NCBI GenBank assembly: GCA_963838925.1
Contig: CAWISW010000003.1
Span: 192,001 to 256,000 of the forward strand
Origin: an uncultured Nitrososphaerota archaeon
GTDB lineage: Archaea; Thermoproteota; Nitrososphaeria; Nitrososphaerales; Gagatemarchaeaceae
Reading direction: 5' to 3'
DNA: 64,000 bases
A program made the translations under genes and the position numbers. Of the stretch, positions 2,084-14,900 are shown piece after piece. The notes below the pieces were generated by a model. It was not told the DNA's origin. It was given only the letters and a program-made list of their open reading frames with translations, and did no database searches. How positions within the stretch are numbered: position 1 is the first letter of the stretch; every line of letters begins with the position of its first letter.

Positions 2084-2182
2084 GCGAGCTGCGCGACGCT
2101 TTGTCTAAAATGAAGTTGCAGGGCATTGCCATACACAGGGTTCATTGCGCCTCCGCCGGGGCATTTCACTCACACGTTGAGC
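2084..2182 (-). repeat. Copy of 23S rRNA 3' processing-stem arm/trailer (repeat copy I)
   Basis: Near-identical to 11818-11916 (..aaaatgaagttgcagggcattgccatacacagggttcattgcgcctccgccggggcatttcactcacacgttgagc). Confidence 0.95.
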
Positions 2183-2341
2183 CCGGAGCTTTTCTCTTGT
2201 GATATGACTTGCGGAGCTTTTCAGAAGGTCGATGTCTCTGGTTCCTCGATACTTGACGTATTGACTTACAGCCAATGCGCCGATGAATACGATGTCGCCG
2301 AGTTCTTTGGCGATCCTAATTGCTTCCTGTTCTGGGTTCAG
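2183..2341 (-). pseudogene. 3'-truncated AbiEii-like nucleotidyltransferase toxin fragment
   Basis: Minus frame reads LNPEQEAIRIAKELGDIVFIGALAVSQYVKYRGTRDIDLL. This is the GxxA..RxTxDID NTase signature. It overlaps the end of the upstream antitoxin and runs into repeat copy I after ~50 codons. Confidence 0.7.
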
Positions 2342-2987
2342 ACTGAATGAGCTCCTCTCTTACCTTTAGGACATCTTCAGATTTGAACGCCCCTCTGACC
2401 TTCGAATCGAGTTTGCGATGGTGAACTATCTCAATGGCGATGGCGTCGAGCATGTTTCGACCTCCGTATGCGATGCAATCAAGGTATACCCGCTGTATCT
2501 CATTCGAAAAGTGGCCGGTGCGCGGTATGATTGCCACTCTGCCGCGCGTACCTTCAGAGAATTCATGGTTTCCCAGGGTTGCGGCTGCCGTGTCGATGTC
2601 ATCCACATACATGAAGAGCTTGTGAGGTAGCTGAAAGCCCGTCAGTTCGTACGCCCGATAATCCAAGGTGACCACGCCCTCTATCAGCTGTCGAGCAAGT
2701 CTTATGTCGTTCTCGTTGTATGACAAACCGAAGTATCGCGCTTGTTTGATGGCCAGAAGCGACGGGAGCAAGTAAGACCAGAGGTGGAACGGCTGGAACA
2801 GGCTCGAATGGATTGTAAAAAACCCGTCTTTGACCTTATCGGCAAATCCGACTTCCCGAAGTTCGCCTAGAAGTCTGTAAGCTGTAGCCCGGGAGCCCAT
2901 TATTCTTTGTAAATCGTTTACTTGGTAAACTGGTTTTTCGCCCATGTTTTGGGCTATAACCATCTCAGGTCTGATCGTATCACGCAT
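2316..2987 (-). CDS. AbiEi-like (type IV TA) antitoxin: N-terminal wHTH plus C-terminal domain
   Basis: HTH SRATAYRLLGELREVGF and C-terminal QRVYLDCIAYGGR; coupled to a downstream NTase fragment. Confidence 0.65.
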   Translation of the reverse strand: MRDTIRPEMVIAQNMGEKPVYQVNDLQRIMGSRATAYRLLGELREVGFADKVKDGFFTIHSSLFQPFHLWSYLLPSLLAIKQARYFGLSYNENDIRLARQLIEGVVTLDYRAYELTGFQLPHKLFMYVDDIDTAAATLGNHEFSEGTRGRVAIIPRTGHFSNEIQRVYLDCIAYGGRNMLDAIAIEIVHHRKLDSKVRGAFKSEDVLKVREELIQSEPRTGSN

Positions 2988-3000
2988 GGTAGTTTGTAAC

Positions 3001-3029
3001 TATATAAAGACGTCTCAAAATTGAGACGT
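3001..3029 (-). promoter_or_regulatory. TATA box plus perfect 9-2-9 palindromic operator of the AbiE-like operon
   Basis: TTTATATA (minus) at 3001-3008; acgtctcaa-aa-ttgagacgt at 3010-3029. Confidence 0.6.
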
Positions 3030-3057
3030 TCGCTTGTGCCAATCAATATATCTTGAT

Positions 3058-3104
3058 CACGGATTCGTCGCGCCTCCGCTGGGGCATTTCACTCGCACGT
3101 TGAG
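3058..3104 (-). repeat. 23S trailer repeat copy H (diverged)
   Basis: cacggattcgtcgcgcctccgctggggcatttcactcgcacgttgag aligns to 11868-11915. Confidence 0.9.
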
Positions 3105-11221: not shown

Positions 11222-11251
11222 ACACACAAGGCTTCATTGCGCCTCAGCAGG
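11222..11251 (-). repeat. Degenerate 23S trailer repeat copy C (core only)
   Basis: acacacaaggcttcattgcgcctcagcagg versus atacac(a)agggttcattgcgcctccgccgg. Confidence 0.75.
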
Positions 11252-11313
11252 TTGACTGCTCCAGAAAGCGTATCTAACCTCTCGACCTTCATTGGAAGGC
11301 TAGGATCGTCACT

Positions 11314-11790
11314 TTGGAACTTGCCTTCAAGGACTATGTGGTCTGGCTGAAGAGACTCTCCCTACTGGGCGTGTTCGTCGGTTACATTATCGGCAGACTG
11401 CCTCCCCCTCTGCCCACTTGCAACAACGGACAACCATTCTGCTTCTCCAATGGGCCGCCCATCGTGCCCATAACCGCCATCATAGGAATCCCGCTGCTTC
11501 TGCTCTGTGCGTTTGGACTTGCTGCCTTCTTCCTGATCAGGCAGGTCGCCCCCGGTGAAACGGGAGGTGCGATGAGCAGGATTTGGCTCGCGCTTGCCGT
11601 AGCTATCGCGCTGCCGCTAATGATATTCACTTACGAGGAACAGGCGACATTAGCGTGGTTCCAGACCCCGCTTACACCGCTAACTGTGGGAATCGGAGTG
11701 CCTGTCATTGCTTTCTCCGTCTTCAGGCTCGTCAGGCCCTACAGGACCAAGTGGAGATCCAAAGCGGACGAGAATGAACTATTCGCCTAG
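11314..11790 (+). CDS. Hypothetical multi-pass membrane protein
   Basis: Four hydrophobic segments and a CNNGQPFC loop. Confidence 0.7.
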   Translation: MELAFKDYVVWLKRLSLLGVFVGYIIGRLPPPLPTCNNGQPFCFSNGPPIVPITAIIGIPLLLLCAFGLAAFFLIRQVAPGETGGAMSRIWLALAVAIALPLMIFTYEEQATLAWFQTPLTPLTVGIGVPVIAFSVFRLVRPYRTKWRSKADENELFA

Positions 11791-11862
11791 GTCTTGACGC
11801 AGCTCTTATTTTGGTGTGCGAGCTCCGCTACGCTTGTCCAAAATGAAGTAGCAGGGCATTCG

Positions 11863-11897
11863 CCATACACAGGGTTCATTGCGCCTCCGCCGGGGCA
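11863..11897 (-). other. Native 3' arm of the 23S pre-rRNA BHB processing stem (repeat copy A; trailer homology extends left to ~11818)
   Basis: RNA CCCCGGCGGAG-GCGC-AAU-GAACCCUGUGUAUGGC pairs with the 5' arm GCCGUGCAUAGGGUUC-GCGC-AAG-CAUCCGCCGGGG (15584-15618, minus), giving a 3-4-3 BHB. Confidence 0.9.
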
Positions 11898-11904
11898 TTT
11901 CACT

Positions 11905-14900
11905 CGCACGTTGAGCTATAGGTAGTGGACGGGCTGAACTAGTCGCCCGAAGGCTTCTAGCGTACACCCCCACCCCTTCAACGCGATCTTCTATCGCCGC
12001 TCTCCTCAGCTCTCCCCTCCCCTTGCGGAGAAAGGATGTGCTGATGGAAATCTCTTCTTGGGAGTGGCTTCCCGCTTAGATGCTTTCAGCGGTTATCCAC
12101 GATAGCTTAGCTGCCCGGCGATGCCCTCTCGGACAACCGGTACGCCAGAGGCTACGCGCCGCTGTTCCTCTCGTACTGGGCAGCGCTTCCCCACAGATTT
12201 CCTCCGCTTCCATCAGGTAGAGGCCGACCTGTCTCACGACGGTCTAAACCCAGCTCACGTTCCCCTTTAATGGGCGAGCAGCCCCACCCTTGGCCCCTGC
12301 TGCAGGACCAGGATGGGAAGAGCCGACATCGCAATCTTATCCGAAATTTCTTTCGGGATCAGACTATGTCTTCACCCCCCGCACTTCGTCGGTAGGGGGG
12401 TCGGCGTATGATGGCTTGGCTTTTCTGAGGCCTCTCGAGTTGTATTGTCACGGCACGTCGGACGTGCCGCGTCGAGTGGCGTCCAAAGCCATCTCATTGG
12501 CCGCAGATATTCTGCGCACCTCAGTCGTTACGGGGTCATACGGTTTGATCGTACTTCTACCCTGACGGACAAAAACCACAACCTTGCGTGGACAGGCCCG
12601 CCCTATGGCAGGACTGCCCGTAGCAGTGTTGCGCCCGTTTGCATCCGCCATCCTTTCGGACAGCGTTTGCTGCCGGAAGATGTCGTTCATTTCGAACCTA
12701 TTTCATCTGTCTTTGTCCTTCCATGGATAGAAGAAGTGCCCTTAGGAGCGAACTTTGTTCTTGGCTGTTTTGCCCATATAGCTGCCTGCTCAAGACAGCT
12801 AAGCTCGCTTTACCGTAGACTTCCCACGGCGTTGTCCTCTTTCGGGAATTCGTCCGTGTTCCCTTCCGAAAGGAGGAGTTCGCCGTTATAAGCCGATACT
12901 TCAAATCGCGTTACCACGATTCTGCCCCGAGCGCGTTAGCGCCAAGGTACCAAACCGCGGGGTCGATTGGAGCTCTCGCCCGCGACGAGCCTGTTACCCC
13001 TGGGGTAACTTTTCTGTCACATCCAGCCCCCAACAGTGAGGATTGAATGATCGCTAGGCCACACTTTCGTGGCAGAAAACTCTGCGTTTAAGTTTCCTGT
13101 CAGGCTGGCTTTTGGCCTTGCCCTCAACGATGGAGTTCTGACCCATCTGAGCCAACCTTTGGGCCCCCTCGATATCTTTTCAAGGGGGTGCCGCCCCAGC
13201 CGAACTGCCCACCTGCCGGTGTCCTCCCGTAGGAGTTAGCGATCCAGTTCTAAGAGAGGGGTGTTACATTGGCGCCTATTGGTCACCCGAAGGCGACCAC
13301 TTAGCGGCTCCCCCTTACACTATGCGATCAAAACCGAATCGCAGCAACAAGCTGCAGTAAAGCTCCACAGGGACTTCTCTCCCCGATGGAAGTTGCTGGA
13401 CTGTTCGTCCAGCTTACGTAGGTTCGCCGGGTCGTAGATAGGGACAGCGGGGCCCTCGTTGGTCCATTCATGCACGTCGGAACTCACCCGACAAGGCATT
13501 TGGCTACCTTAAGAGAGTCAGAGTTACTCCCGGCGTTAACAGGCCCTTCGCCCAGTTGAACCCAGGTTTAAGGTACCTGCACTGGCCAGGATTCATAAAC
13601 CGTACACATCCTTTCGGACTTGCGGTTTACTGTGTTTTTATTAAACAGTCGGGACCCCCTCGTTATTGCAACCTGCTATCCCAATTTCACATTAAGAAAG
13701 CAGGCACCACTTCTAGTTATCGTACGTGGCTATTTTGCCGAGTTCCCTTACCTACAGTTCCCCGATACGCCTTAGGCTTCTCACCTAGGATCACCAGTGT
13801 CGGTTCTAGGTACGATCTTGAGCATTCCTCTCATTCCTCTGTTTTCACTGTCTCCTGGAATCCAGTAAACGACCCCAACGGGCCGCTATTCTCTTCTCGG
13901 AAGAGTTCTCGTCATTACGACTCTCCCTCTTCCTCAATAGATTAAACAGAGCGATAAACTCTGCAAACCGTATCCGGAAGCGTCAGAGGCGATATCGTCC
14001 CTTGCGGGACATCGGAATGCACAAGGCTGCGGAATATTAACCGCATTCCCTTGTTCGAACGAATACGTTGGTTTCGTTCTTAGGATCGGCTAACTCCTGG
14101 CTGATGACGCATTGCCAGGAAAACCGTGTCCTTTCGGCGATCAGGATTCTCACCCGACTACGCTGCTACTACTACCAGGATCTGCACTGGAAATCGGTCC
14201 ACTGGACCTCACGGCCCAGCTTCTTCCCAATCACCACGCCAATCTACCACATACGTCTCACAGAGACGCAGTCCAGAGTATCGGTACTGGGCTTTAGCCC
14301 CGTCCATTTTCGGGGCCCCTAACCTCGGCAGGTGAGCTGTTACGCTTTCTTTGAAGGGTGGCTGCTTCTAAGCCTACCTCCCTGCTGTTTTAGGTCAAAG
14401 ACTCCCTTTTGCTTGACACTTAGCCCAAATTTGGGGACCTTAACTCTAGTCTGGGTTAAACCCCTCTCGGTTATGAGGCTTACCCCACATAAACCCGCCT
14501 CCCCGCGTCGTCTGCGTTGACACATTCGGAGTTCAAGAAAAAGGTGGACCCTTTCGGATCCTTGTCTTTTCGTTGGTGCTCTACAGCGTCAACAACATCG
14601 GCGGAGACAGGACTGGGATCCGCTTCGATTGGAACTAGCAATCACCAAGCTAGATAGGCTTTTGGCCCCTTGTCCAGAATCAGGGGACTAAATTGCACGT
14701 TAAGACCCTTGCAGGCCTCCACCAGGCTTTCGCCCGGCTTCACCTTGTTCTGGACACGATCGTTTGGTTTCTAGTCTAAACCGCCATGACTCTAAGGCCC
14801 TTTCAGACCTCCCCCCACGCGCCTTGCGGCGTTACGGAGAATCGGTTTCCCTTCGCCTCCGGGCTTCTAACCCTTAGGCTCGCCATGACAGTTAACTCCC

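Follow-up and report, generated by a model that had tools for sequence, protein, structure and literature searches.

Why does the sequence that follows the 23S rRNA gene of an uncultured Nitrososphaerota archaeon recur many times in the adjoining DNA, and what is kept between the copies? The question arose from an initial annotation of 64,000 nucleotides (nt) of this genome (the window: contig CAWISW010000003.1, positions 192,001 to 256,000), in which a direct repeat punctuating a series of genes was traced to the processing stem of the 23S precursor rRNA (pre-rRNA) and described as an rRNA-anchored gene-cassette array. The repeat was analysed in the window, in the whole assembly that contains it (G000; 1.84 Mb in 3 contigs, among them C1 and C3; 87% complete, 61% G+C) and in related genomes, which carry other G numbers. 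The locus is probably best read as an integron-like cassette platform at an rRNA processing site, defined by that site and served by an enzyme that would act in trans.

The 23S gene of the window (11899-15577) is the sole large-subunit rRNA (LSU) gene found in the G000 assembly. It lies on the minus strand, as does the 16S gene (15805-17302), both being assigned by Rfam, which gave no tRNA in the 16S-23S spacer and no 5S gene nearby. The genes upstream of 16S are housekeeping genes. Co-folding of the 23S flanks gave an energy of -59 to -106 kcal/mol, depending on the flanks supplied, and returned 11862-11895 as the partner of 15584-15618, in agreement with the pairing given in the initial annotation. 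The repeat core is the 3' strand of this stem, and the complementary part of the 5' arm is 15586-15608. A bulge-helix-bulge of the 3-4-3 form can be drawn with an AAG bulge, a GCGC/GCGC helix and an AAU bulge; the minimum-energy fold takes a neighbouring register. The elements at the 23S end are the following.

11797 to 11871, plus strand: 23S trailer ('L arm'), whose proximal 10 nt lengthen the processing stem (BLAST, co-folding)
11872 to 11893, plus strand: anchor core of 22 nt, directly 3' of 23S; the RNA (minus) strand reads CCGGCGGAGGCGCAAUGAACCC
11878 to 11880, minus strand: AAU, a possible bulge on the 3' strand, core positions 6-8; the putative crossover falls at about core positions 5-8 (low resolution)
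11899 to 15577, minus strand: 23S rRNA gene (Rfam)
15584 to 15618, minus strand: 5' arm of the processing stem, pairing with 11862-11895 (co-folding)

The distal part of the trailer consists of a T-rich stretch followed by a hairpin-capable segment. If the cassettes are recombination units, the trailer would count as part of the first cassette.

The core, GGGTTCATTGCGCCTCCGCCGG, was matched eight times in the window at up to 3 mismatches, always on the plus strand, and 0 times in 100 dinucleotide shuffles. The matches start at 2138, 7267, 8166, 8845, 9720, 10798, 11230 and 11872. A ninth, more diverged copy at 3061 completes the repeat family, which is in accordance with the anchor and eight further direct copies described earlier; the start coordinates reported then (2084-11222) are the starts of the extended repeat, trailer arm plus core, and agree with the BLAST extents. 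Comparison of the 23S end and trailer with the genome by BLAST revealed three types of copy, namely trailer arm with core, core with 23S-end arm, and core with both arms. The trailer arm reaches ~75 nt in G000 and the 23S-end arm measures 30 to 167 nt.

The conservation of the copies was analysed over 275 of them from 11 array stretches. Strong conservation was confined to positions -1 to +23, about 24 nt, and the arms showed 0-0.4 bits per position; the copies were picked by core match, which inflates the values within the core and leaves the sharp edges unaffected. A short arm motif was scored on each side of 293 junctions, of which 60 had both arms, 108 the left only, 46 the right only and 79 neither (odds ratio 0.95). 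The left and right arms are independent, as would be expected if each flank of a junction came from a different unit and the units met within the core. Such independence is not expected from the decay of repeat units that were copied whole.

The 293 copies, which comprise those in the stretches of nine relatives and the 18 and 8 of G000, are co-oriented within their arrays, against 3 on the opposite strand (up to 6 mismatches, fetched array stretches). The median core spacing is 857.5 bp (interquartile range 684-1440, n=282). No inverted repeats were found in window positions 1-18000, the core shows no dyad by this search or by inspection, and Rfam gave 0 matches over 1900-11960 at E<=1. Core mismatches averaged 1.68 at 0-5 kb from 23S against 2.0-2.4 beyond, with per-array Spearman coefficients of -0.07 to 0.66, and no clear decay of the cores with distance from 23S was seen in the fetched arrays. 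In trailer-arm junctions (for example window 8133-8175) the arm contains AATGAAG, an inverted repeat of the core TTCATT around a small GC hairpin; this pairing, if formed, would compete with the processing stem.

The junctions and cassettes of the window are listed outwards from the 23S gene, with their open reading frames (ORFs) and lengths in amino acids (aa).

11252 to 11871, plus strand: cassette 1, adjoining 23S; ORF 11314-11790 (+), 158 aa, no family match
11230 to 11251, plus strand: junction with degenerate core (3 mismatches) and no recognisable arms (core search, BLAST, profile)
10820 to 11229, plus strand: cassette 2; ORF 10978-11193 (+), 71 aa, no family match
10749 to 10876, plus strand: junction with both arms; core 10798-10819 with 1 mismatch, 91% identity to the anchor region
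9742 to 10797, minus strand: cassette 3; ORFs 9760-10251 (163 aa) and 10248-10829 (193 aa)
9665 to 9744, plus strand: junction, trailer arm plus core, no 23S arm; core 9720-9741
8867 to 9719, plus strand: cassette 4; ORF 8925-9638 (+), 237 aa, no family match
8790 to 8871, plus strand: junction, trailer arm plus core; core 8845-8866
8188 to 8844, minus strand: cassette 5; ORF 8307-8768 (-), 153 aa, no family match
8115 to 8187, plus strand: junction, trailer arm plus core; core 8166-8187
7289 to 8165, minus strand: cassette 6, a toxin-antitoxin (TA) pair; PIN 7358-7771 and MazE/AbrB-like 7768-8163 (Pfam)
7266 to 7325, plus strand: junction, core plus 23S-end arm, no trailer arm; core 7267-7288
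3083 to 7266, plus strand: cassette 7, a 4.2 kb module; ORFs 3311-3751, 3872-4222, 4229-6547 (772 aa) and 6614-7267 (217 aa)
3061 to 3112, plus strand: junction, diverged core (4 mismatches) plus 23S-end arm (repeat search, BLAST)
2160 to 3060, minus strand: cassette 8; ORF 2316-2987 (-), 223 aa, no family match
2061 to 2182, plus strand: junction with both arms; core 2138-2159
1 to 1957, plus strand: 3' part of a type I restriction-modification cassette that begins left of the window (Pfam, ORFs)

The left end of cassette 2 is a 57-nt copy of the 23S 3' end, which reaches 10876. ORF 10248-10829 of cassette 3 gave weak coiled-coil-type matches only (Pfam, PADLOC, NCBIfam). In cassette 7 the winged-helix matches of ORF 3311-3751 were weak and below cut-off, and the other three ORFs had no family match. 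The type I cassette lies between the junctions at C3:189277 and window 2138 and encodes an HsdR-like (C3:189414-191792) and an HsdM/S-like protein (C3:191792-193957). Nine of 10 window cassette ORFs were without a Pfam family, and nine of 10 without a PADLOC or NCBIfam family. Naive ORF calling supported the earlier description of one gene or small module per interval in either orientation, and searches with PF00589 and a custom hidden Markov model (HMM) found no integrase in the window, as had been stated. From the contents named at that time, the TA pair was recovered (PIN with MazE/AbrB-like); the surface proteins and the pilin/toxin module were left unconfirmed, nine of the 10 ORFs being without a family.

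The extent of the repeat in the genome was determined with a core profile (E<0.1), which gave 30 copies in G000, 19 and 8 in two arrays and 3 solo. The main array of 19 copies (plus strand) runs from C3:171268 up to the 23S gene, about 33 kb. It extends 21 kb to the left of the window, which holds its 23S-proximal third (10 kb). The second array consists of 8 co-oriented copies on the minus strand at C3:362896-372403, 160 kb from the rRNA operon and inverted with respect to the main one. The expectation that the core occurs at this locus only is thus corrected by the second array, the solo copies and the leftward extension, and the expectation that the repeat is not dispersed over the genome was supported by 27 of the 30 copies lying in two arrays. 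The second array terminates in a 162-nt copy of the 23S 3' end with 99.4% identity, and no 23S gene is located there. The solo cores are at C1:131741-131773, C3:146401-146432 and C3:322249-322286, the first two being intergenic by naive ORF calling, and may be secondary sites or single cassettes.

The array is not restricted to this genome. With a 164-nt query spanning trailer, core and 23S end, matches were obtained in 23 of 41 related genomes (G000 counted among them) and in 18 of the 22 of the same genus. The core at up to 2 mismatches was present in 25 of 31 genomes of the family, from 9 of its 10 genera, and a reversed-pattern control gave 0. The stretches fetched from nine relatives contained 35, 49, 62, 15, 56, 10, 14, 12 and 14 copies (up to 6 mismatches). 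Two of these stretches (G020, G022) held no LSU gene, and in all seven relatives whose stretch did, the array adjoins the 23S 3' end; the same was seen in G043 and G048. G043, which is 96% complete, has ~10 copies adjoining 23S and ~15 inverted further out, about 19-25 copies in total. The complete single-contig genome G046 has one core copy, at the 23S 3' end, which represents an empty site. The anchoring of the array on rRNA, as first proposed, is supported by these genomes. The relatives also do not carry an identical fixed array, as their content and order differ and cassettes recur elsewhere bounded by cores.

Among public sequences the core was held by at least 90 contig stretches with titles of Nitrososphaerales or Thaumarchaeota metagenome-assembled genomes (MAGs), including 'Candidatus Gagatemarchaeum stordalenia', and by at least 120 further metagenome stretches. 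Searches of viral contigs, phage records and plasmid records with the core or with trailer plus core gave no match. Contigs binned as an Acidimicrobiales MAG (L040, two cores) and an Acidobacteria MAG (L069) also carry the core; misbinning of thaumarchaeal contigs seems likelier here than transfer.

Two side observations concern the 23S region of the relatives. In G046, ~18 kb downstream of 23S (C1:999-1017.5 kb) contains mostly ORFs with no G000 homologue at E<1e-10; this region varies even where repeats are lacking. The G000 23S gene, with 3679 nt against a model of 2987 positions, contains insertions; differences in them among the relatives lie near G000 23S positions ~518-588, ~1607 and ~1739, and they are probably variable rRNA introns. 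G046 has a larger insert ~600 nt from the 23S 3' end, where the Rfam gene end was misplaced 1.39 kb inward.

The relation of the repeated sites to the stem of their host was examined by comparing lineages. The stem of G043 has the 5' arm AGUGUUC and the 3' arm GAACACU, and that of G000 and G046 has AGGGUUC/GAACCCU. This single pair of changes reads as compensatory, with the helix kept, which indicates that the processing stem is real. The array cores follow the same change. Both G043 arrays have copies with T at core position 1, 12 of 19 in total, compared with 7 of 277 copies in the arrays of genus g1 (Fisher p 3e-12, a value that overstates the difference as the copies are not independent). 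Most of the arms derived from 23S are of the 23S type found in the host or in its nearest relatives; such arms are up to 162-203 nt long with 97.5-99.4% identity to the 23S of the same genome. Among long arms, 6/6 in G021 are of its own distinctive type and 8/9 in G000 are of the own type or a tie. The exceptions are the PIN-MazE cassette of G012, which has a G000-type arm, and one G010 arm of the G021 type, and some movement between lineages takes place too. The co-variation and the host-type arms together indicate that each lineage's sites were copied from its own 23S junction, which agrees with the proposal that the copies came from the host's own trailer. They may arise at the birth of a cassette, or they may be templated at insertion.

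The behaviour of the cassettes as movable modules was analysed by comparing arrays. Different arrays had 51 non-rRNA segments in common at 78% identity or more. These ended at a core in both copies at the left end in 27/51, at the right end in 17/51 and at both ends in 11/51, compared with a chance expectation set by a core window that covers ~5-9% of the sequence. The same cassette was located at different distances from 23S, 47.1 kb in G007 against 1.7 kb in G010 for one and 25.6 kb against 41.2 kb for another, and duplicates exist within one array (for example at 96.7% identity in G015). G012 and G009 also have the PIN-MazE cassette, at other places in their arrays; both of its arms come with it and the neighbours differ, and the homology begins inside the left core at about TTGCGCC and stops at the right core. 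G000 and G012 have five cassettes in common, in roughly the same order apart from two local swaps; one of the five, 15 kb from 23S in G000, is the first cassette in G012.

The initial annotation had proposed that cassettes are added one at a time next to 23S and push the earlier ones outwards. This holds at best in part, as the cores show no clear decay and the order is reshuffled between relatives, and growth from the 23S side would be the direction only by inference. The position of exchange within the core was approached through junction variants. Unshared variants cluster at positions >=8 in right-hand junctions and at 0-4 in left-hand junctions, which suggests a crossover at about core positions 5-8, GGGTTCAT / TGCGCC, at low resolution and from few informative variants. 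This interval coincides with the AAU of the possible 3' bulge. In short-read contigs from 3 public runs of one study, the 'joints' between copies have sides of 21-40 nt and could stem from the cassette of any related organism.

The cargo of the G000 array was assigned by Pfam and included a PIN/MazE-like TA pair, a type I restriction-modification unit, an Mrr-like nuclease, Fic, a NERD-HEAT protein, a radical-SAM protein, AAA/STAND-like and DEAD-box ATPases, a DnaJ-domain protein and one IS240-type DDE transposase; one further protein gave weak CBS and HEPN matches below cut-off. The 469 array ORFs formed 360 clusters with 299 singletons, and with the genome- and metagenome-contig loci added, some of which overlap, 1612 ORFs formed 1133 clusters with 862 singletons. 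The recurrent families were PIN, MazE/AbrB, HicB, ParE, Fic/Doc, NHL/PQQ propellers, an Ig-like-looking Nitrososphaerota family and unknowns. No recombinase-like protein was found by Pfam among the most frequent cassette families. Three frequent families had 0 sequence matches in PDB, and Atlas leads for the frequent families were at or under 0.90, the best being Nitrososphaerota hypothetical proteins and Ig-like families. The longest cassette ORF is on the rRNA strand in 178 cases and on the other in 86. Defence and addiction genes are plentiful in this accessory pool. The transposase (IS240/IS6-type, with a SWIM zinc finger, C3:179323-180489) lies inside a 6.3-kb array interval left of the window.

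On the reading favoured here, the recombination site would be the middle ~24 nt of the 3' strand in the processing stem of the 23S pre-rRNA. A cassette would be a discrete unit of one or few genes with a median size of ~0.86 kb, and its two ends would carry the two halves of the core, often accompanied by a piece of the 23S 3' end at one of them and a piece of the trailer at the other. Recombination in the core would insert, excise, reshuffle and delete cassettes. Since all cassettes end in the same half-core, whichever of them adjoins 23S restores the outer helix of the processing stem. RNA derived from the cassettes would lie beyond the cut site, which may render the position a safe harbour. 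The sites would originate from the junction of the host lineage itself, by local birth of a cassette or by templating at insertion. The independence of the arms, the sharp core edges and the armless junctions argue for an exchange defined by the site and not by the length of homology. A site-specific recombinase acting in trans is the preferred guess for what moves the cassettes.

Small modules, often TA modules, bounded by a short host recombination site are found in the integrative mobile elements exploiting Xer (IMEX) at dif and in the pdif modules of Acinetobacter plasmids. These Xer-dependent modules are moved by a host enzyme encoded elsewhere, and their integration regenerates a functional host site; dif itself is a 28-bp imperfect palindrome of 11-6-11 form. 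The present core differs from it in having no dyad, its sites are all direct, and no protein reached the cut-off of the archaeal XerA model (220 bits; best scores 75 and 96 bits).

The enzyme was sought with the families PF00589, PF00239, PF01548, PF00078, PF01797 and PF01867 in sets of 5 genomes, with protein queries for three tyrosine-recombinase families (A, B and C) across the 31 family genomes, and with the custom HMM over G000 and all core-bearing loci. The PF00589 search was insensitive, as it missed family C genes that the protein query found in G000 and G060. Several results weigh against the favoured reading. No recombinase tracking the arrays was found among the families searched, and only 3 tyrosine-recombinase ORFs, none tied to arrays, were present in 1.48 Mb of core-bearing loci. 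Families A, B and C are mutually distant and patchy with an identity typical of mobile genetic elements (MGEs); G000 is without B and G007 without A. G043, which has arrays and is 96% complete, gave no match with PF00589 or with the A, B and C queries. Matches of the other families were found, of 5 genomes, in 1 for serine recombinase, 3 for IS110-type, 0 for Y1 transposase, 2 for reverse transcriptase and 1 for Cas1. No circular cassette, plasmid or virus with the core was found in the collections searched. The crossover is a rough interval resting on few informative variants, and the ORFs come from naive calling in a genome of 61% G+C. The cassettes that relatives share have 78-97% identity and in part the same order, and much of this sharing may go back to vertical descent followed by rearrangement, not to recent transfer. 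Finally, the variant found genome-wide in G043 is awkward for a purely conservative exchange of half-sites and fits duplication or templating better.

These negative results on recombinases are weak evidence, since the MAGs are incomplete and the sensitivity of the searches was limited. In G000 the only two tyrosine-recombinase ORFs lie at C3:13.6 kb and 436.9 kb, a long way from the arrays. G046, the genome with the empty site, does carry tyrosine-recombinase genes. Another conceivable candidate, the type IB topoisomerase of Thaumarchaeota, would occur in genomes with and without arrays alike. In the contigs L035:2055-4235 and L043:4922-6192 a common 405-nt cassette (91% identity) begins at a core, and just past it are tyrosine recombinases that belong to two families, one C-type and the other B-type; elements with an integrase of their own may have entered arrays, or settled beside them, in these contigs. 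The family A recombinase of G000 (431 aa, C3:13610-14902) adjoins a 219-aa ORF, which by eye resembles the C-terminal part of a glutamine synthetase; this would fit an element integrated in a protein gene. Families A and C have a common C-terminal motif.

A second reading, which is doubtful but deserves attention, is that the arrays belong to a new class of gene capture with no kinship to integrons, in which host machinery inserts at the 23S bulge-helix-bulge junction and templates a fresh copy of the junction each time. It could act like the target duplication of CRISPR and casposons, or be an activity coupled to the site seen by the RNA-processing machinery. Growth at the anchor side with duplication of a ~24-37-nt repeat would explain repeats templated by the host. 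The arrays differ from CRISPR in that the inserts are genes of ~1 kb and not spacers of 30-40 nt, Cas1 was found in 1/5 genomes, repeat decay shows no clear polarity and the cassette order is reshuffled.

It is unlikely that the arrays are driven by the host with no dedicated recombinase, through local duplication of 23S end, core and trailer followed by shuffling, loss and exchange by homologous or short-homology recombination, the 23S gene acting as a long anchor for uptake from relatives. Such a course would account for the lack of any recombinase associated with the arrays, for arms of up to 162-203 nt that copy the 23S end of the host's own clade, for the lineage-specific core variant throughout the G043 arrays and for an order partly collinear between relatives. 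Against this, the 79 armless junctions of 293 leave ~24 nt of homology and conservation stops sharply at the core edges, whereas longer arms should dominate if the length of homology drove exchange. Cores without a function should also decay as the arms do, but those 40-100 kb out are nearly as intact as the proximal ones.

Tandem accretion of integrative elements (proviruses, plasmids or cryptic elements) with their own integrases at a 23S attachment (att) site, since decayed, was judged very unlikely. The likeness to tandem elements at the 3' ends of tRNA and tmRNA genes is that the repeats hold the end of a stable-RNA gene, insertion restores that end and the site is used again; the repeats are att-like duplicates which, as at tRNA genes, include the 3' end of the target. 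Arrays formed by repeated integration of tyrosine-recombinase elements at one site, and tandem casposons at one target, have been described (both in PMC6563490); the two contigs with a tyrosine recombinase gene just past the same 405-nt cassette point the same way. The units found here are smaller, with a median of 857 bp (~0.86 kb) and no integrases or backbones, only 3 integrase ORFs occur in the 1.48 Mb of core-bearing DNA, the most frequent families include no recurrent MGE backbone genes, and the core was not found in viral or plasmid collections. The target also differs, being an rRNA trailer and processing stem. The targets given for integrated MGEs of Thaumarchaeota are tRNA genes, intergenic regions and the 3' ends of protein genes, and the terms 'rRNA' and '23S' are absent from the main text of that source (PMC6563490).

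A role at the RNA level, in which the copies pair in cis on read-through RNA or with the abundant 5' arm in trans and direct endonuclease cleavage or 3'-end formation of cassette transcripts, the array being a by-product, was considered even less likely. The conserved block coincides exactly with the middle of the processing stem, the array copies co-vary with the 5' arm in G043, and about two thirds of the longest cassette ORFs are on the rRNA strand (178 vs 86). One third of the cassettes are nevertheless on the other strand, where the RNA is the complement, and the recurrence of cassettes bounded by cores, together with the 23S-end arms, would stay unexplained. The likeness to archaeal pre-rRNA bulge-helix-bulge stems is that the anchor copy is the 3' strand and that a relative shows a compensatory change; in the literature searched, as far as its available text goes, no case was found in which such a 3' strand had multiplied into a genomic repeat that bounds genes.

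Integrons are the textbook platform for the capture and shuffling of single genes. To our knowledge the origin of their attC sites is unknown, and the archaeal integrons reported so far, as far as we know, look bacterial in type. The likeness of the present arrays to the Vibrio superintegron, to clusters of attC sites lacking an integron integrase (CALINs) and to archaeal integrons (Ghaly et al. 2022, PMC9668308) extends to long co-oriented arrays of dozens of ~0.5-1.5 kb cassettes with a site between each, to a cargo mostly of ORFans with TA and defence genes, to the same cassette in varied positions and genomes and to arrays that can lack an adjacent integrase. A canonical integron or CALIN as in archaeal MAGs was nevertheless given hardly any probability, despite a co-oriented array of such cassettes rich in TA genes and ORFans. 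The present site is a non-palindromic ~24-nt core, with no inverted repeats in window 1-18000 and no attC-like hairpin (3 junctions folded as 6 single DNA strands were no more stable than shuffles, with z-scores between -0.21 and +1.24). There is no integron integrase either, the integron-integrase model TIGR02249 with its cut-off of 265 giving 43 bits for family A, 40 for B and no match for C. The anchor is the 23S processing stem and not attI beside intI, cassette genes lie on both strands, and the sites copy host sequence and co-vary with the host stem. The terms 'rRNA', 'Thaumarchaeota' and 'Nitrososphaer' are absent from the available text of PMC9668308.

The negligible possibility of an artefact of misassembled rRNA-flanking variants, or of a miniature inverted-repeat transposable element, draws on raised depth at the repeats and many contig breaks there (short-read contigs, three public runs) and is countered by arrays in many independent assemblies including single-contig genomes, by the confinement of 27 of the 30 G000 copies to two arrays, by co-orientation within an array and by the lack of terminal inverted repeats.

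An rRNA-anchored cassette array is not described in the literature searched, as far as its available text goes, which included PMC10640624 on Gagatemarchaeaceae genomics, PMC6563490 on integrated elements of Thaumarchaeota, the review PMC8371274 on archaeal tyrosine recombinases and PMC9668308 on archaeal integrons; supplementary Table S2 of PMC6563490 and data S1 and S3 of PMC9668308 could list such targets or MAGs. There is a real chance that the mechanism itself is of a new kind. If host templating is the true course, the host rRNA trailer would give birth to the sites, the array would be a record of the states through which the stem has passed, and 2-4% of the genome would be kept as an exchangeable cassette store at a safe harbour.

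For the biology of the family, the result is that abundant soil archaea hold arrays of up to 60 or more cassettes (62 copies at maximum). These arrays would form a rich and ordered catalogue of archaeal defence and addiction genes and of ORFans, and the missing enzyme is a concrete search problem. The integron-like platform favoured here, if confirmed, would represent a second, independent solution to the storage of genes as cassettes, with a visible origin of the recombination sites, and would connect the signals for rRNA processing with the plasticity of the genome in a tractable way.

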